This document shows, one piece after another, positions 19,052-61,383 of a stretch of 64,000 bases of DNA. Under the pieces are notes generated by a model, which saw nothing but the letters and a program-made list of their open reading frames with translations, did not search any database and was not told the origin of the DNA. The stretch comes from Escherichia phage vB_EcoM_E9.1. The position numbers and the translations under genes were made by a program. The stretch lies in the sequence record PP886230, one strand, 5' to 3'. Position 1 is the first letter of the stretch. Each line of letters starts with the position of its first letter.

Positions 19052-19447
19052 TTATAAAGACGATACTGAATATGTTGCCATTCTGTTATTACTTCTTGCA
19101 TCGAATACAATAGTAAGTTCTTCTAATGTATCCAATACTACGTACTGTAATACAATATTCATTTGGTATCCATATTCTATTCTTGAAATTTGCAATTTCT
19201 TAAGATTTAAGCGTGGATCTAAGCTAATTATTCTACGGGCATCTGCTTCCAAAAGGTTGATAGTATTATAACCTTCCAATTCAAACAGCAAATCCCATGC
19301 AATAAAACCATAGTCAGCATCAAATGCTCTTTCGCCTTTTTTTGTATTGAAATGATTCATTAAATCTTGGCGAACCAATTCACTATCATACAATGTTTCA
19401 GTTCTACCCACTACTGGGGTAGAAAAACCTTTAAAAACAACTGCCAT
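19052..19447 (-). CDS. gp25-like baseplate wedge subunit, 131 aa
   Basis: Size and position match T4 gp25 (132 aa) between the lysozyme/spike genes and the gp6-like gene. Confidence 0.55.
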   Translation of the reverse strand: MAVVFKGFSTPVVGRTETLYDSELVRQDLMNHFNTKKGERAFDADYGFIAWDLLFELEGYNTINLLEADARRIISLDPRLNLKKLQISRIEYGYQMNIVLQYVVLDTLEELTIVFDARSNNRMATYSVSSL

Positions 19448-19462
19448 TGACTATTTCCTTTA

Positions 19463-19951
19463 TTATACGGATTCAACAATACGTGCCATCTTTTCCGCTC
19501 TTGAAGTGGTTTGTTTATACCATGTACTATCACGCAATTCCTTACCAGCAGTTTTATAATCAGCCTTACCTAATGCGGTCATTGCTTTTTTAAATTTTAA
19601 AACTTTGGTTTTGCCCATCTGGAATACCATCAACCATAATACACGTTGAACCTGTACAGGTGCGGTCATACCAAATTGTTCATAAATTGATTTTGCATCA
19701 TTGTACGCAGTTTGAGCATCTTTAAGAAGAAGTTGGTCAGCTTGTGCTTCTGTTAAACCATTCTTGAAATTTTCACCAGGTAAAACTAGGTGACCATAGC
19801 CAATAGTATCAAGACCTAAGCTGTCTTTATATACCCAAAACTTATCATTTTTAAAATAACCAAGTTTTTTCTGATAAGCAATAGTTCCTTCAAATTCTTT
19901 AATTTCCTTAAAAAATTGCTCATCTGTATTTTTAATTTCCCATTTACTCAT
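19463..19951 (-). CDS. T4-type lysozyme (endolysin-like), 162 aa
   Basis: EFEGT...DTIGYGH catalytic region (Glu/Asp/Thr equivalents present), MVFQMG and WY.QT..RA motifs as in T4 lysozyme. Confidence 0.85.
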   Translation of the reverse strand: MSKWEIKNTDEQFFKEIKEFEGTIAYQKKLGYFKNDKFWVYKDSLGLDTIGYGHLVLPGENFKNGLTEAQADQLLLKDAQTAYNDAKSIYEQFGMTAPVQVQRVLWLMVFQMGKTKVLKFKKAMTALGKADYKTAGKELRDSTWYKQTTSRAEKMARIVESV

Positions 19952-19987
19952 AAAGATATCCTCGTTTTATTTATAGTACTAAAATAT

Positions 19988-22651
19988 TTATTGACATGCC
20001 TCTAAACGACGAGCCATTAACTCAGCACGGCGAGTAGTTTGGCGATACCAAGCTGAATTACGTATTTGAGCAGCAGCTTGTTTATAATTACCTTTAGCTA
20101 ATTCAGACAACATAGTTTTAAATTTAAGTACCCCACCTTTACCCATCTGGAATACCATTTGGCATAGTACTTGTTGAGCCAAATAAGGTGTTTTCATGTT
20201 GTATGAAGCATAAATTGATTTAGCATCATATATAGCTTTACTACTATCACGAACTAACATATCGTTGGCTTGCTGTTCAGTTATTCCATCTGAAAAGTTT
20301 TCACCACTAATAATTAAGTGACCATAACCAATAGTTGGATACCCACGACTATCCAAATAACGCCAGAATTTACCATTACGATAATATCCTTTTGCTTGTT
20401 GGTATTGTAATGTACCTTCATATTCTTTTAATTCAGAAATAAATTGTGCATCACCTGGAACAACTTTCCAATCGATTGCAGTTTTATCAACATTTCCAAT
20501 ATTATAGGTAGGTTGCTCCACCGGAGTTGTTGAAGCTCCACTTCTCTGTGTTCTTCTCCTACGAGGCACATGACGAGAACCACGTTGAGAATATCCAGTA
20601 CCTATCGTTTTGATTTTTGTTGTAACTACCAATTCATCACTATCAACTGAAGGTTGTACAACTGCTTTTGGAGCAGATTGATTAGTTGCTTGACCACCAA
20701 TTAATGTTTTATTCGCCGCATCAGACCCTGTTCCTGTTTGTGAAGCATAAAATAATCCTGGGTCAACAGAACCACTGAATCCAAGAACATTTGCTGATGT
20801 AACACGAATTTCAAACTGTATGACACCATTTGCTTTTCCAACAACTTGACCTTTTTGAACAACATCTTTGTTTAATAAATCAGATTGAATATTATAAAAA
20901 ATAGATTTATATCCAGACTTATGTTGTATTAAAAGAGCACCATTAGTAATTACTACCACACCACCATCTGGTGCAACTACATCACCTTTACATTGTATTT
21001 CCCAACCTGAACGGTCTGCCTTTCCTCCACTTTGTGTTGGAACACCTTTCCCCCAGTAACCATATTGTCGAATAGTGCCGCTACATGGCATTAACATATG
21101 TAAACCTTCATATGTAATACTATATCCAGTCATCCCAGGATCAGATGTCATCAAATCTTGTGATTGAACTTGTTCAGTTTCTGATGTATAGTTAACAAAC
21201 TGAACAGCTTCAGTGTCTTGTGCTACGGGTAATTCTGGTGATACATCATTTGCTGGTTGTGGTTGTACTGGTGATTCACTAGAACCACTTCCACCACCTT
21301 GTCTTGGTGGTTCAACATAACTACCATGATTTTCAGCGTTAACCCATGCAGCAATATCATGAATGTGTTCATTAAGACCAGCAGATGGTGTTCTAAAGTT
21401 TGGTGCAGTAAATTCAGCAGTACCGCTATTACCACCACTATTAACTGTTAATGTTTGACCACCACCACTAATAATTGCTGATGATGATCCAATTAGGTTT
21501 GCAGATGTTGCGGCAGAAATAGAAGCATTTGAACCAGCCGTAATATCAGTACTGCTACCACTTTGCATACGTAATGATGCAGCAGTAACTAAACGAAGGT
21601 CTGCCCCAGAATTAACAACAACTTGTCCACCAACTTTTGCATCAAGAGCACCAATTAGATCTAATTTAGTATTTGCACCAACTCGTGCATTGAAATCTTG
21701 TCCGGTTTCAATATTATATGAACGTCCAGCAGTAATATTAATATCTTGACCAGCACGAATATTAATATTCTTATCACAGTGCATGTCAATATCACCTTCA
21801 CCAGTGAATTTTATACGTGCAGTGCCATCACGGTTAATTAAAAGAACATCACCAGTAGCTTCTGATAAAAGAAGTTGTGCACCACTACGTGTTTTTATTA
21901 CGACACCTTCATTTTTACGAGAACCAACACGTGTATCGTTTACTGGGTTATTAAATTGTGTATCTTGATATCCATCTGGGTCTTGATCCCACGTTGGTGC
22001 TGTTAATTCCTCTTCAGTATATCCATCATCAATAATAAAACTATTACCACGTGGCGAAGACATACCATATACAGTACTGGTGGTTTGTCGAGTACTACTA
22101 CGATTCGCCAACCCAGCTTCTTCGTCATATAAAAGGTTTTGCTTTTTAAGACCTGCGATAATTGGAACGTTAGCATATTTGTCTTGCATATCGGTAGTGA
22201 TAGTGTTACGATCATAGTCAGTAACAGGAAGTGGCATATCAGTTCCACCATAATTACTTACTTCAGTTGCCATACCTGGAACCATAGTATTCATACGCTG
22301 GTCATATACACAACCAATCCAATATGCTTGGAATGTACGGGCTTGTGCAAAAATTACAACAACTGTACACCCTACGTCTGGTGGTACTGCCCAAAAACCG
22401 TATCCTTTTGGATATTGACCATATGCATCAGCACTTGGAATACCTGGTGTTTTACCAGCAAAAGGAGACATGTAAGATGCTTCTATCCATGATTCTTTTG
22501 AGTTTTTATCACTTTGAGAACCTTGTATCCAAACTTTCAGTTTTCCTGATTTAGTTGGATCTCTGTTATCCATAACAGTTGCTAACTGCGGATAAGATGG
22601 GTCAAAACGACCCAACTGCTGTTGTGCATACTTTTTACTTGTATCTGCCAT
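19988..22651 (-). CDS. 5: gp5-like baseplate central spike with C-terminal T4-lysozyme domain, 887 aa
   Basis: N-terminal OB-like region, central Gly/Ser/Thr/Asn-rich repeats suggestive of a beta-helix, a lysostaphin-like stretch lacking the HxH motif, and a C-terminal domain about 55-60% identical by eye to the adjacent standalone lysozyme. Confidence 0.7.
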   Translation of the reverse strand: MADTSKKYAQQQLGRFDPSYPQLATVMDNRDPTKSGKLKVWIQGSQSDKNSKESWIEASYMSPFAGKTPGIPSADAYGQYPKGYGFWAVPPDVGCTVVVIFAQARTFQAYWIGCVYDQRMNTMVPGMATEVSNYGGTDMPLPVTDYDRNTITTDMQDKYANVPIIAGLKKQNLLYDEEAGLANRSSTRQTTSTVYGMSSPRGNSFIIDDGYTEEELTAPTWDQDPDGYQDTQFNNPVNDTRVGSRKNEGVVIKTRSGAQLLLSEATGDVLLINRDGTARIKFTGEGDIDMHCDKNINIRAGQDINITAGRSYNIETGQDFNARVGANTKLDLIGALDAKVGGQVVVNSGADLRLVTAASLRMQSGSSTDITAGSNASISAATSANLIGSSSAIISGGGQTLTVNSGGNSGTAEFTAPNFRTPSAGLNEHIHDIAAWVNAENHGSYVEPPRQGGGSGSSESPVQPQPANDVSPELPVAQDTEAVQFVNYTSETEQVQSQDLMTSDPGMTGYSITYEGLHMLMPCSGTIRQYGYWGKGVPTQSGGKADRSGWEIQCKGDVVAPDGGVVVITNGALLIQHKSGYKSIFYNIQSDLLNKDVVQKGQVVGKANGVIQFEIRVTSANVLGFSGSVDPGLFYASQTGTGSDAANKTLIGGQATNQSAPKAVVQPSVDSDELVVTTKIKTIGTGYSQRGSRHVPRRRRTQRSGASTTPVEQPTYNIGNVDKTAIDWKVVPGDAQFISELKEYEGTLQYQQAKGYYRNGKFWRYLDSRGYPTIGYGHLIISGENFSDGITEQQANDMLVRDSSKAIYDAKSIYASYNMKTPYLAQQVLCQMVFQMGKGGVLKFKTMLSELAKGNYKQAAAQIRNSAWYRQTTRRAELMARRLEACQ

Positions 22652-22664
22652 AATATTTTATTCC

Positions 22665-24914
22665 TTAATCAACTATACTATCGTGACGTTTGAGTGCACG
22701 AATTACAATTGCAGCTTGAATTTGTTGTGTAAAAGAACCACCTGCACCAAAATCATGAACAATTTTATTAACACGATAAATTGTTTGGTTAAATGTGGTT
22801 GGTGTATTAATATCCAAAACACCAGTGTTATCATTTATTGATATTACTGGTTGTAATTTTAGTAATAGATACGCTTCAGATGTTATATAATTTGCTACAT
22901 GATAATCATCTGGGTTAATTTCCATATCTTCACCATTAATTACTTGTTCTAGATATTGTAAGTAAGAGTAATCACTCCACCCTAACCAGTACGGGTCACC
23001 TACTACACGCATATCGAGTTTACACAAAAAAGGTCTATTGTAATAATTGTCACGTATTTTACGTCTATCCATTTCATATGTGCTGCTGTTATCGTTTAAC
23101 GAAGCGGATAAAGTTGTTTCATTGTTAGTTGCTTCGGTTGGCATTGTGAACACTTCACCATAACGGTGACCAACACCATCAGTGCCACCATCGTTTTCTT
23201 CATAAGTGGTTACATAATCTTCAATATATTGAGGTAAAACATTGACTTGATAGTTATTATAACGGTCTTGTTCTTCTGCGTTACCAACCTGCATTTGATT
23301 TTTTGCTAAAGTTTCAACTTCAGTTAACAATTGTTGTTGGGCTTGTGTTAACATCCCTCCTAAATCACGAGTTACACGTAAATCACTTGTTTTTGCCCAT
23401 GCGTCTGGTATACTATTGTATTGTACACCTTGAATATTGAGTTCTTGGGATGTATGTGTACCTGCATGGTTCGCTACATCTTGTATCGGACCAGGGTTAC
23501 GTGTAGTGGCTACGAAAAATTGCTGATCAAATTTCAAATCCAAATCAAGTATCTCACTATTAAGCCCACTAAATTGATAATTATAAGTTTTCATGTTTAT
23601 TTTTGGTTTTTGATCATTAGGATCTACGTATTTTTCTGCGTTCTCAAAAAAGTACTCAAATGTGAAATTTTCAGGTTGTAAATCCGATTCATGAACAATA
23701 TCACCTATTTTAAATCTAACAATATAAAAAATTACTTTATAAACAGAAGTATTACGATAATTATCAAAACCAACGTATTGTTTAACTGGTATAATGTTTA
23801 CAAATTGACGCACACTAGTACTATCATCGGCTTGTACAGTACATGTATCAATAACGTCATCAATAATTCGAGATATAGGAGTACTTGGGTTCCATGAAAA
23901 GTTTTTAGAACCTTGTGCACCACTTTTAGTTGTTCCGGCCTCTGCCATTTGTTTAGAATCATAGTTTATAAACAAATCTTGCAAATCAGGTGCTACTTTA
24001 AATTCGAAAAATTTACCTTCGGATAATTCACCAAATTTATATCTAAGATAACCATATTGTTGGTCAGCCATCTGATTTAATTTATCTTCTAAATCAAAGC
24101 AGAAGTCACCAAAGTTTTCAGCAGTACAATTGAATGGTTCTTTTAAGGTCCATTCAATGTTATCAACTAAAGCTGCTCTATTATGAACTAAGTTCATAGT
24201 ATACATCATAGTACTACCACTTTGTGAAGCACTTGCAGTAACACTATTAATTTTAACTGACCAGCGTCTTGTTGTTTCTGGGATAATTTCAGGTATTCCA
24301 TTTTTATTAAAGCCAATAAACTTTAATTCCAAGATCAATGGCAAGTCCATAAATTTATGATATCTAAGTTTGTTACTTAACGAAATTAATTCATCATATA
24401 GACTCATACTATTATTTTCAGACATATTAAGTACTGCTGTATTAAAACAATAGTTTGTTGTCATTCCTGGTGTTGAAGGTCCAGCTTGTGTCATTTGTAC
24501 ACTAGTGATATTATATTTGCCAGTAACACCACTTTCTGATATCACATGTCGTTGCACTTCTGCATCTGGGTAAAGCCAAAAGTTTTTAAAATCATCTTTA
24601 TCTAAGGCAAATAAACAAAAGTGCCAAGTTGGGTTATCATATTTCAATAATTTATTGTCATACGGTATTACAAACTGACTTAAATCGAGATCTTCATAAA
24701 CTTGATCAACACTAGCACTTTGTTTTGGTAATGATACTACATTACTTACATTTGCTTTGTAATTATTTTTTGTAATAGTTTTTACATCATTTTGTAATGT
24801 ATTTGCTGTAGCTTTCAAACTATCAAGTGCATTAGATGTAGTGGTTTTAGCCTTACCAGTAATACTTGTAATATCATTTTGAAAATTATCAACTGTACTT
24901 CGTAAATCTGCCAT
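22665..24914 (-). CDS. hypothetical baseplate/tail-associated protein, 749 aa
   Basis: Long ORF directly upstream of the gp5-like gene in the same operon; function not recognised. Confidence 0.5.
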   Translation of the reverse strand: MADLRSTVDNFQNDITSITGKAKTTTSNALDSLKATANTLQNDVKTITKNNYKANVSNVVSLPKQSASVDQVYEDLDLSQFVIPYDNKLLKYDNPTWHFCLFALDKDDFKNFWLYPDAEVQRHVISESGVTGKYNITSVQMTQAGPSTPGMTTNYCFNTAVLNMSENNSMSLYDELISLSNKLRYHKFMDLPLILELKFIGFNKNGIPEIIPETTRRWSVKINSVTASASQSGSTMMYTMNLVHNRAALVDNIEWTLKEPFNCTAENFGDFCFDLEDKLNQMADQQYGYLRYKFGELSEGKFFEFKVAPDLQDLFINYDSKQMAEAGTTKSGAQGSKNFSWNPSTPISRIIDDVIDTCTVQADDSTSVRQFVNIIPVKQYVGFDNYRNTSVYKVIFYIVRFKIGDIVHESDLQPENFTFEYFFENAEKYVDPNDQKPKINMKTYNYQFSGLNSEILDLDLKFDQQFFVATTRNPGPIQDVANHAGTHTSQELNIQGVQYNSIPDAWAKTSDLRVTRDLGGMLTQAQQQLLTEVETLAKNQMQVGNAEEQDRYNNYQVNVLPQYIEDYVTTYEENDGGTDGVGHRYGEVFTMPTEATNNETTLSASLNDNSSTYEMDRRKIRDNYYNRPFLCKLDMRVVGDPYWLGWSDYSYLQYLEQVINGEDMEINPDDYHVANYITSEAYLLLKLQPVISINDNTGVLDINTPTTFNQTIYRVNKIVHDFGAGGSFTQQIQAAIVIRALKRHDSIVD

Positions 24915-24925
24915 ACGTTACTCCA

Positions 24926-25240
24926 TTAGCCTATGTTTCGAGTACCATTAAGATAATTCTGTACTCTTTGATTTGCTGGTATTCTAATTGTTACTCCACT
25001 TTTAAAATTATATATAGGATCTTCTCCTAGTATATCTGGATTTAACAATGCGAAAATATAATATAAGCGTTCATTACCATACATTTCGTATGCTAAACGC
25101 CAAGGTTGATATTCATATTTCAATGGGATCTCATAAAAATCATCAGTATCAGCCGGAACAATATCACGTGGTAAATTATACCCAAGATACCATGTTTGTT
25201 TCACCTTAGCGTAAGGTGAGTATTGACTATAGTTGGACAT
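24926..25240 (-). CDS. hypothetical protein, 104 aa
   Basis: Track ORF in the structural operon; 4-nt overlap with the upstream gene suggests coupling. Confidence 0.5.
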   Translation of the reverse strand: MSNYSQYSPYAKVKQTWYLGYNLPRDIVPADTDDFYEIPLKYEYQPWRLAYEMYGNERLYYIFALLNPDILGEDPIYNFKSGVTIRIPANQRVQNYLNGTRNIG

Positions 25241-25971
25241 TAAATGAATCCTCCTTTACGTAATAGTTCACCACGTTTGAATGCATTGAGGTTGAACGTT
25301 TTAGTCATATAATCCGATGTTGGTTGTTCTTCAAGTTGTAACATAACTGAGATTTTTTGTGGAACCCAAACTTCATCTTGTGGGTTCATATATCCAGTAC
25401 TTCTAAGTTGTTCGAAGAATTTTCTACTATCCATGTCGGATAAATTAAAAGTACTATCGCTACTATTCAACGGAACTTGAATATAAGAAACATCATTTGG
25501 GTAAGTAAAATTATAAGATTTTAAAATAACAGGAATATCATTATATGTATAACGACCATATCCACTTAGAAGTAAGATTGGTGGTGGTGCACCTGCAATT
25601 GCGAGTTCGGGGTTATTAGCCGAAGCAGCTTGTCTACCAAAATCCATCAACGAAACAGAACGTATAAAATGAACACATGCCAACGCATACATAGCTTCTG
25701 CTGCGGTATTCGCATAAAATTCACCCTGAATCGTGAAAACTGTATTAGTAGTGTTCTTATAGTTGTTATAGTTACTGTTAGTATGTATAGGGGACTGTGT
25801 TTCATACTGAATTGACCTTTGTTCAGTAATTGTTGGTGTTACAGTCCAAACCAACCCATTAGTTGGACGCAGAAACGAAAGTAGAGTTGGTTCGGAGCTA
25901 TCTCCAAAATCACCATATACATAGTTAGCACCTGCGGCTTTAGGTCGTAATCGAATTCTACGATCAATCAT
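25240..25971 (-). CDS. hypothetical structural protein, about 243 aa
   Basis: Track ORF starts at a TTG (26061); the internal ATG at 25971 has a GGAG SD and leaves room for the divergent promoter region. Confidence 0.5.
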   Translation of the reverse strand: MIDRRIRLRPKAAGANYVYGDFGDSSEPTLLSFLRPTNGLVWTVTPTITEQRSIQYETQSPIHTNSNYNNYKNTTNTVFTIQGEFYANTAAEAMYALACVHFIRSVSLMDFGRQAASANNPELAIAGAPPPILLLSGYGRYTYNDIPVILKSYNFTYPNDVSYIQVPLNSSDSTFNLSDMDSRKFFEQLRSTGYMNPQDEVWVPQKISVMLQLEEQPTSDYMTKTFNLNAFKRGELLRKGGFI

Positions 25972-26017
25972 CTTTTTGATTCTCCATAATAAGGGAACAT
26001 TTGATGTATTTATACGT

Positions 26018-26045
26018 GGGACAAACTGCTTTTTGGTGCTATAAT
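26018..26045 (+). promoter_or_regulatory. early sigma70-like promoter (GGGACA-N16-TGcTATAAT)
   Basis: GGGACA 26018-26023, 16-nt spacer, TGc-TATAAT ending 26045; upstream of the gp55-like gene. Confidence 0.5.
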
Positions 26046-26102
26046 AACATTGATGGTACAAGGATTGTACCTATTGGATTTAAACATGGAGAGTAAAATA
26101 CA

Positions 26103-30626: not shown

Positions 30627-30718
30627 AATTCCTCACCAAACTATTTGTTATCAAAATATTTATAGATTAGTTATTTGCAATATTTTAAGTACTTAATGAA
30701 TATTTTTATAAAAATAGT

Positions 30719-32508: not shown

Positions 32509-32599
32509 TTTATTAAATCTCCATGTAATAAATGTGTTTTAGTATTTATAAGACTAAAAAAGATTAAATTAAACTAATTTTTATATTCTCTATAGTTTC

Positions 32600-38489: not shown

Positions 38490-38555
38490 CATTTTAAAAA
38501 TATAAATATCTGTATGTTGAAGTACAGATATTTCAGTACTTAAAGGAGAGAACGA

Positions 38556-39709: not shown

Positions 39710-39727
39710 TATAAATAATATCATACT
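39710..39727 (+). promoter_or_regulatory. late promoter (TATAAATAATATCATACT)
   Basis: Exact T4-type TATAAATA at 39710-39717, about 45 nt upstream of the capsid gene ATG. Confidence 0.55.
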
Positions 39728-49657: not shown

Positions 49658-49721
49658 TATAAATAACGGGGAACACTATGTTCCCCAAATTAGTTTGATT
49701 TAAAAAGTAAAGGAATACAAA

Positions 49722-60564: not shown

Positions 60565-61383
60565 ATGACAAAATTAAATGAGTTTTTATCAAATGTAGCA
60601 GTTCTAGATACTGAAACTACTGGGGTTGAGAGTGAAGATGATATTATTGAATTTAGTATCTCGTATCCACATACTTCACATGAAAACATTGATACTATTG
60701 ATAACTATACATTGAGATACAAACCCTTGAAAGATATTCCACCAGAGGCATCTGCTGTGCACTTTATCAGTACTGAGGATGTAGCTAATTGTGTTGGGTA
60801 TAAAGATGATTTAGATAACATTGATGCACTTATGGGATGCCGTAAGTATTTTGTTGGTCATAATGTACAATTTGACCGTAGAATGATGGTAGATAACGAA
60901 TATAAATATCGTAACTCAATTTCACAGTACTTACTTGATGAAAATAAATGGATTTGTACCCTTCGTCTTGCTAAGAAAATGTTCGCAGAAGATATTGAAT
61001 TTAAAAACTTAACTCTAAGTTATTTGTGGTATAAGTTTGGATGTTATCGTGATGTTCATCGACCTGTTAATGCACACGCAGCAAAAGACGATGTGTTCAT
61101 GTGTTATCAGGTTCTAATCAAATTAGTTGAAATTGCAATCGAACGTGGACATATTGAGCCTAATGGTGATATTGGTGAGCAAATTGTAACTTTCTGCAAC
61201 ACACCAATGCGTTATCAATTCATGCCATTTGGTAAACACAAAGGTGAGCCAATGAGTACAGTTCCATTGAATTACATTGAATGGATGATTGCTAATAGTG
61301 ACATTTTAGATGCAAGTAACCCTAACTGTGATAAAGATTTAGTATATACATTTGAGTACGAATATAATACTCGAACTAATTAA
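60565..61383 (+). CDS. DEDDh-family 3'-5' exonuclease (DnaQ/DexA-like)
   Basis: Exo I LDTETTG, Exo II HNVQFDRRM, Exo III H-x4-D (HRPVNAHAAKDD). Confidence 0.7.
   Translation: MTKLNEFLSNVAVLDTETTGVESEDDIIEFSISYPHTSHENIDTIDNYTLRYKPLKDIPPEASAVHFISTEDVANCVGYKDDLDNIDALMGCRKYFVGHNVQFDRRMMVDNEYKYRNSISQYLLDENKWICTLRLAKKMFAEDIEFKNLTLSYLWYKFGCYRDVHRPVNAHAAKDDVFMCYQVLIKLVEIAIERGHIEPNGDIGEQIVTFCNTPMRYQFMPFGKHKGEPMSTVPLNYIEWMIANSDILDASNPNCDKDLVYTFEYEYNTRTN

Follow-up and report, generated by a model that had tools for sequence, protein, structure and literature searches.

In bacteriophage T4, the central spike protein gp5, present as three copies per virion, joins an OB fold, a GH24 lysozyme, and a triple-stranded beta-helix in one polypeptide in which the lysozyme separates the OB fold from the helix. 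T4 gp5 carries neither a LytM domain nor an HxH motif, has the PAAR protein gp5.4 as its cap, and undergoes maturation cleavage; its lysozyme is paralogous to the free phage lysozyme gpe. In evolved VgrG proteins, which are secretion system parts and include V. cholerae VgrG-3 with its C-terminal peptidoglycan hydrolase, a gp27-like domain is fused N-terminally and an OB fold and DUF2345 beta-helix needle are followed by a C-terminal enzymatic effector. Here we analyze a 64,000-nucleotide (nt) stretch of Escherichia phage vB_EcoM_E9.1 (PP886230; hereafter the window), in which a minus-strand gene (19988..22651) encodes an 887-amino-acid (aa) protein and is followed by a gene for a 162-aa lysozyme (19463..19951, minus strand). 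As in T4, the long protein combines an OB fold, a GH24 lysozyme, and a triple-stranded beta-helix and has a free lysozyme paralogue, but its lysozyme is C-terminal (aa 725-887), after two tethers. Its needle-then-effector order resembles that of evolved VgrG, but it belongs to a phage virion, Pfam found no fused gp27-like N-terminal domain in it, and the hub would be encoded by a separate gene. We consider it likely that the 887-aa protein is the central spike of a contractile tail, presumably trimeric, consisting of a needle plus tethered cargo; this judgment covers the whole explanation, including the roles proposed below for the cargo, the docking domain, and the lysozymes jointly.

The closest described relatives are the spikes of RaK2, PBECO4, and CBB, which belong to the same protein family, have the same gene neighbors, and differ in nothing structural. 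The RaK2 genome paper (2013) described three paralogous lysozymes, and the CBB paper (2017) set the architecture against that of T4 gp5 and pointed to a central stretch of Rak2-like homologues as a possible M23 domain (E 6.5e-4). Because these papers describe it, the unusual domain order pointed out in an earlier note on this DNA is real but essentially published, as are the possible M23 domain and the paralogous lysozymes, and the order also recurs in distant relatives. In the literature on the RaK2 and CBB spikes, the M23 domain is not described as catalytically dead, no invariant HxH motif is mentioned, and the duplication is not dated. New here are the family-wide degeneration of the LytM domain, the invariance of the HxH motif, the old age of the lysozyme duplication, and a wider pattern of spike cargo.

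Domain organization of the 887-aa protein

The 887-aa protein, read here as a baseplate central spike or tail lysozyme, is orthologous to RaK2 gp078, CBB_240, and phAPEC6 gp241, and PHROG 13211 covers it end to end (1813 bits). It is 100% identical in PBECO4 and other phages and about 57-68% identical in CBB and RaK2, and mass spectrometry (MS) has found its orthologues in virions of CBB and phAPEC6. All domain coordinates given below are on the minus strand of the window. The OB fold (aa 23-116; 22304..22585) matched Pfam Phage_base_V (E 8e-7; 29.8 bits, cutoff 23.8). It is followed by a conserved insert (aa 117-245; 21917..22303) that had no match in the Pfam search and occupies the place where T4 gp5 holds its lysozyme; in both of the more divergent identity groups, no other region is better conserved (71.8% identity in the mid-divergence group). 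The triple-stranded beta-helix region (aa ~246-415; 21407..21916) is built of 8-residue repeats, with the Pfam DUF2345 match starting at residue 278. Residues 290-415 are successive 8-residue units with a lag-8 hydrophobic autocorrelation of 0.33, a value reached by none of 2,000 shuffles. An AlphaFold2 (AF2) monomer model of the protein (74 homologues) had a mean predicted local distance difference test (pLDDT) score of 78, with scores of 82-92 in the beta-helix region and low values only in short loops and at residues 702-719. Pfam and AF2 thus agree on a gp5-like protein in which the lysozyme lies after, not before, the beta-helix, as the earlier note had read it.

The helix is followed directly by a segment (aa 416-445; 21317..21406) containing H429-x-H431 and H442, a putative His cage or apex-like metal clamp. 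Both H429 and H431 are present in 87/87 family sequences, and H442 is present in 81/87. The P2 Apex study found HxH to be the only universally conserved feature of contractile-tail spikes, reported that it forms an iron-binding His cage and also clamps trimeric fibers, and noted that spikes without HxH, such as T4 gp5, bear a PAAR cap. The order of OB fold, beta-helix, and HxH right after the helix is shared with the apex-type spikes P2 gpV and phi92 gp138, so that formation of a His cage at this position would be a reasonable expectation from the sequence. In spikes of this type, three chains build an octahedral Fe site at the tip, near the C terminus. In contrast to P2 gpV, whose chain stops ~12 residues past HxH, the 887-aa protein bears ~450 residues of cargo there.

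Two tethers and a conserved segment separate the needle from the cargo domains and the cargo domains from each other. Tether 1 (aa 446-477; 21221..21316), recognized by composition and conservation, is Pro/Gly/Ser-rich, and tether 2 (aa 701-724; 20480..20551) varies in length from 13 to 35 residues, with 24.9% identity in the mid-divergence group and pLDDT <50. Residues 651-700 (20552..20701) comprise a conserved strand and the basic motif YSQRGSRHVPRRRR, in which G691 (87/87), S692 (85/87), and P696 (86/87) are nearly or fully invariant. Within otherwise variable tether sequence, two short motifs stand out as strongly conserved, QPANDV (aa 465-471; window 21239-21259) and YSQRGSRxVPRR (aa 687-698; window 20558-20593). 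Either could be a docking or processing site.

A degenerate LytM domain maintained across the family

Residues 512-650 (20702..21118) make up a degenerate LytM domain with the M23 fold. For the 887-aa protein alone, Pfam PF01551 scored 21.4-22.4 bits, below the gathering cutoff of 28.7, and phmmer with fragment 478-707 alone gave no match among PDB sequences, which made a family profile necessary. Peptidase_M23 was matched (E below 0.01) by 26 of 29 family members, with a best E of 5.7e-11, and the family profile matched solved M23/LytM chains, among them LasA (E 1.4e-6), SpoIIQ (E 2.4e-6), zoocin A, DipM, and EnvC. In a separate AF2 model of residues 470-700, the core reached a pLDDT of 94-98, and in the monomer models the segments flanking the domain were not confidently placed (pLDDT about 50-60). 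All of the top 50 PDB Foldseek matches were M23/LytM domains, led by EnvC, PrgK-LytM, and DipM, and StM23 superposed on the model at 2.2 Å. Because the family-wide Pfam hits, the profile matches, the AF2 core, and Foldseek agree, we take the M23 fold to be real, and both this fold and the beta-helix proposed in the earlier note are supported.

The catalytic positions were located by alignment to LytM and lysostaphin, together with the canonical M23 lead-in (P-x-x-G-x-I...[FY]G), which corresponds to P522, G525, I527, and G531 in this protein. In a manual register, HxGxD aligned to R547-S-G549-W-E551; MAFFT shifted this alignment by two residues, and neither register yielded the His or Asp. The catalytic His of the YxHL motif aligned to N587 and the two His residues of the M23 HxH aligned to V610 and Q612, while H577 aligned to the structural His of dHgnG, which is not a ligand. 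With hmmsearch, alignment of the LytM and lysostaphin sequences was confined to the central part, and the alignment that hhalign made between the family profile and lysostaphin had low probability and poor register. The replacement of the zinc and catalytic positions extends through the family: position 547 is Arg in 71/87 sequences and His in 5/87, position 551 is Ile in 50/87, and a His at 587, 610, or 612 is absent from all 87 sequences. Judged from these residues, the M23-like domain is catalytically dead across the whole family. The loss of catalytic residues had been claimed before from the motifs GVIQFEIR and HMLMP; the first assignment stands, but HMLMP belongs to the M23 lead-in.

This dead domain is as well conserved as the lysozyme (59.5% versus 57.0% identity in the 50-70% group) and appears to be kept under purifying selection as a noncatalytic docking module. 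An exhaustive phmmer search with residues 512-650 recovered only nine representatives, all but one from this spike family, and found no close active relative. In P0122, a protein of 1772 aa, residues 26-52 of the LytM-domain query were matched nine times over in separate stretches, a pattern suggesting a repeat protein made of this segment.

Possible functions of the dead LytM domain

Domains with an M23 fold but without zinc ligands are found in EnvC, NlpD, DipM, SpoIIQ, Csd2, and PrgK-LytM, which are noncatalytic like residues 512-650. Those proteins are bacterial regulators or scaffolds, and known dead LytM domains for the most part dock proteins; here the domain is part of a phage spike. 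Virion-borne combinations of lysozyme and M23 domains are also seen among BFVD hits to phi29 gp13 and to M23-bearing phage tape-measure or hub proteins; in phi29 gp13, the M23 domain is active, unlike residues 512-650. The label of binding module given to the domain in the earlier note is plausible by this analogy. We favor a docking role in which the domain would bind stem peptides of peptidoglycan or, in closer analogy to known dead LytM domains, a protein. Candidate protein partners may lie within the spike itself (its lysozyme or a tether), in the baseplate, or among host enzymes.

A purely intramolecular or assembly role, in which the domain would pack the cargo on the beta-helix or baseplate or mask the lysozyme until spike release, as happens in latent LytM and under the weld-protein lid of phage 812, and would do nothing at the host wall, is possible but doubtful. 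The QPANDV and YSQRGSRxVPRR motifs of the tethers could serve as its docking peptides, and the dead LytM domains of SpoIIQ, Csd2, and EnvC are protein-docking modules according to their PDB descriptions. The baseplate of phage 812 offers a precedent, with an inactive CHAP "clip" domain and a lid over a hydrolase site. Against such a role, the poorly placed segments flanking the domain in the AF2 monomer provide no confident packing, and relatives with GH24 or GH19 cargo manage without a LytM domain.

We regard as improbable that the domain acts like EnvC, NlpD, or DipM by binding and switching on the host amidases AmiA/B/C or other autolysins once the spike has reached the periplasm, which would supplement the phage lysozyme with host hydrolase activity at the entry site. 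The top structural matches do include the dead regulatory LytM domains of EnvC, DipM, PrgK-LytM, and SpoIIQ, the domain is kept by purifying selection without its catalytic residues, and the hosts of this clade are Gram-negative bacteria with EnvC/NlpD-amidase systems. The active M23 enzymes StM23, LytM, and Csd3, however, match about equally, and fold similarity therefore does not discriminate an activator from simple docking or autoinhibition. Still slightly less probable is outright mimicry in which the domain docks on EnvC/NlpD targets and activates host amidases or other autolysins at the entry point; were this true, host enzymes would cut the peptide part of peptidoglycan while the phage lysozyme cuts the glycan. 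Residual peptidase activity with noncanonical residues, for which a metal might in principle be coordinated by E551 together with the conserved residues H577, E614, and R616, was rejected as very unlikely from the residue counts at 551, 587, 610, and 612 and the structural role of H577.

Two active-looking lysozymes and an old duplication

The C-terminal GH24 (T4-type) lysozyme domain of the 887-aa protein (aa 725-887; 19991..20479) carries a Phage_lysozyme Pfam match at residues 765-882. Both this domain and the 162-aa protein, an orthologue of RaK2 ORF073, CBB_239, and UE-S1 LysUE1, exceed the Pfam PF00959 cutoff and have the T4 lysozyme fold. The catalytic triad of T4 lysozyme (E11, D20, T26) corresponds to E745/D767/T773 in the spike domain and to E21/D43/T49 in the 162-aa protein, so that both copies keep the Glu, Asp, and Thr, as had been noted. 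Within the spike family, the catalytic Glu and Asp are present in 86/87 sequences, and the third position, Thr here, is Asp in 19/87. The spike lysozyme thus looks like a working enzyme and is predicted to be active.

The two lysozymes are 52-53% identical over 158-159 residues (E 3e-57), so that the paralogy claimed in the earlier note holds while its figure of 55-60% was slightly overstated. They are closer to each other than the 162-aa protein is to lysozymes of phages outside the clade (at most 44%) or to a third paralogue and T4 lysozyme (about 31-34%). An insertion between the catalytic Glu and Asp is common to both copies and missing from T4 lysozyme. Across the genera Asteriusvirus, Alcyoneusvirus, Mimasvirus, and Eneladusvirus, orthologous C-terminal domains share 64-73% identity and orthologous standalone copies 60-78%. 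In a comparison of RaK2, GAP32, CBB, pEa_SNUABM_47, SE_PL, and fHe-Yen9-04, the C-terminal domains mostly share 60-73% identity, with the divergent SE_PL copy at about 50%, and the standalone copies 57-78%, while the two copies within one genome share 50-61%. In a neighbor-joining tree, all standalone copies group in a single clade (93% bootstrap), and the paralogues of one genome never pair. Because orthologues are closer than paralogues and the standalone copies form a clade, the duplication predates the split of these genera, and the recent duplication previously proposed is ruled out. These comparisons identify the 162-aa gene as an old, true paralogue of the C-terminal domain; that it lies immediately downstream hints at a tandem origin. 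In a Vibrio jumbo phage, the long protein is present with no small lysozyme adjoining it.

The earlier note had joined to the recent duplication and fusion a division of labor, with one copy becoming a spike lysozyme and the 162-aa protein the endolysin of the phage. The copies are indeed adjacent and clearly paralogous, LysUE1 is muralytic in vitro and lyses cells, the 162-aa gene has a late-promoter-like element, and some GenBank records label it an endolysin. Besides the age of the duplication, seen over at least four genera, gene context argues against this account: the 162-aa gene is flanked by the spike and gp25 genes rather than lying in a lysis cassette, and no holin or spanin was found near it in the ORF list, Pfam, or PHROG matches of the window. 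Furthermore, RaK2-like genomes contain three matches to the 162-aa protein, the third being a paralogue of ~300-310 aa with one N-terminal transmembrane (TM) segment, a LysM-like middle, and a C-terminal lysozyme, about 30-34% identical to the other two. This paralogue is conserved clade-wide, and the CBB paper (2017) names its orthologue CBB_187 as endolysin; a search of the window did not find it there. We therefore consider the whole account unlikely and the name endolysin doubtful for the 162-aa protein, which has no TM segment. Most likely, the 162-aa enzyme is an accessory lytic enzyme late in infection, and the membrane-anchored LysM-GH24 paralogue is probably the main exported endolysin. 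In PBECO4, a 48-aa protein with one strong TM segment is encoded ~800 nt upstream of the TM-LysM-lysozyme gene (L010:505-651, outside the window) and is a possible holin or spanin candidate.

A model for the spike and points that weigh against it

In the model that we favor, the OB fold would plug into the hub, probably the upstream 749-aa protein, and the three HxH motifs of a trimer would together bind metal as a His cage, clamping or capping the helix. Sheath contraction would drive the spike through the outer membrane, where the three tethered lysozymes may cut peptidoglycan locally so that the tube passes, as for T4 gp5, with the dead LytM domain docked as proposed above. Expressed from its own late-promoter-like element, the 162-aa protein would act as a soluble, active muramidase and accessory lysin late in infection, and the paralogue with membrane anchor, LysM, and GH24 domains would be exported as the main endolysin.

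Several findings weigh against parts of this model. The Pfam GpV Apex motif was matched by only 2 of 25 family members (best E 0.005), the sole PDB sequence match of the HxH region was to the C terminus of a phage puncture protein at an E of 1.4, and H431 is followed by 456 residues to the C terminus, unlike in P2 gpV. If HxH were the needle tip, shorter relatives would be expected to end right after it, and they do not; we treat "apex" as a candidate role. Fold-family and PDB sequence searches gave no Pfam or PDB sequence match for the 749-aa protein, and its gp27-like role is for that reason assigned from position only. Finally, published MS did not confirm the 162-aa protein as a virion protein, even where spike orthologues were detected (CBB and phAPEC6); this nondetection could reflect low copy number, and RaK2 virion MS missed even the spike itself.

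Gene neighborhood and late-promoter-like elements

DNA identity of the window to Escherichia phage BAU.Micro_ELP-22 (100%), PBECO4 (99.9%), and 121Q (95%) identifies the phage as an Asteriusvirus (PBECO4/121Q/RaK2-like) jumbo myophage. The spike gene lies in a baseplate module whose transcription order is virion protein, gp53-like wedge protein (24926-25240), 749-aa protein, 887-aa protein, 162-aa protein, gp25-like wedge protein (19052..19447, minus strand; Pfam GPW_gp25), and a 1153-aa gp6-like wedge protein. The 887-aa and 162-aa open reading frames (ORFs), both on the minus strand, are 36 nt apart. The 749-aa gene (22665..24914, minus strand), a PHROG virion structural protein at the gp27-like hub position, is syntenic in all relatives compared. 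In RaK2 (L001:5842-7335), the spike and small lysozyme genes are separated by four small hypothetical ORFs, of which two run on the opposite strand; none of them occurs there in Asteriusvirus, Mimasvirus, or Eneladusvirus.

The 162-aa gene is preceded by an element resembling T4 late promoters, TATAAATA (19968..19975, minus strand), 16 nt upstream of its ATG and followed by a GAGGA ribosome-binding site (RBS); ATAAATA is the reported late motif of Rak2-like phages. Further sites lie at 26007-26014, 30657-30664, and 32543-32550 on the minus strand and at 38501-38508, 39710-39717, 49658-49665, and 60901-60908 on the plus strand. The count in the window is not above chance (8 versus 10 expected); only the positions are suggestive, all 8/8 sites lying 16-70 nt upstream of a same-strand ORF start, usually with a GGAG-type RBS. 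One of these sites lies 35 nt upstream of an ATG at 25971 within a minus-strand ORF listed at 25240-26061 as 273 aa with a TTG start. Its PHROG match begins at residue 29, and the ORF probably starts at this ATG, which would give 243 aa.

Spike cargo and annotation in jumbo phages

Distant homologues of the OB fold and beta-helix also carry C-terminal enzymes, a GH24 domain in P0095 and P0115 and a GH19 domain in P0099, P0107, and P0110. At least two of them (P0095 and P0110) lie in the same module of gp53, hub, spike, gp25, and gp6 genes. Many shorter OB-fold and beta-helix relatives (P0088-P0114) share a C-terminal end motif, [FY]EP[WC]PxHE[NH], which in P0095 is internal and precedes the C-terminal lysozyme. 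Staphylococcus phage 812 likewise combines a spike bearing a C-terminal enzyme domain with an inactive hydrolase-fold domain in its baseplate, but the cargo of that spike, a phosphodiesterase-like petal mounted on a coiled coil, differs from the GH24 domain here.

The feature matters chiefly for annotation. GenBank labels for orthologues of both genes are inconsistent (lysozyme, hypothetical protein, or endolysin), and those of vB_EcoM_CRJP21, "nuclease subunit" and "putative RNA polymerase sigma factor," look like a shifted annotation. A correct domain map would aid lysin mining in jumbo phages: candidate enzymes are the C-terminal GH24 domain and the 162-aa protein, no activity is to be expected of the M23-like domain, and the likely true endolysin is encoded at another place in the genome. 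We view the spike as a needle whose wall-degrading cargo can be exchanged, functionally akin to evolved VgrG and the phage 812 spike, and the lysozyme-before-helix layout of T4 is one of several in a conserved baseplate module.

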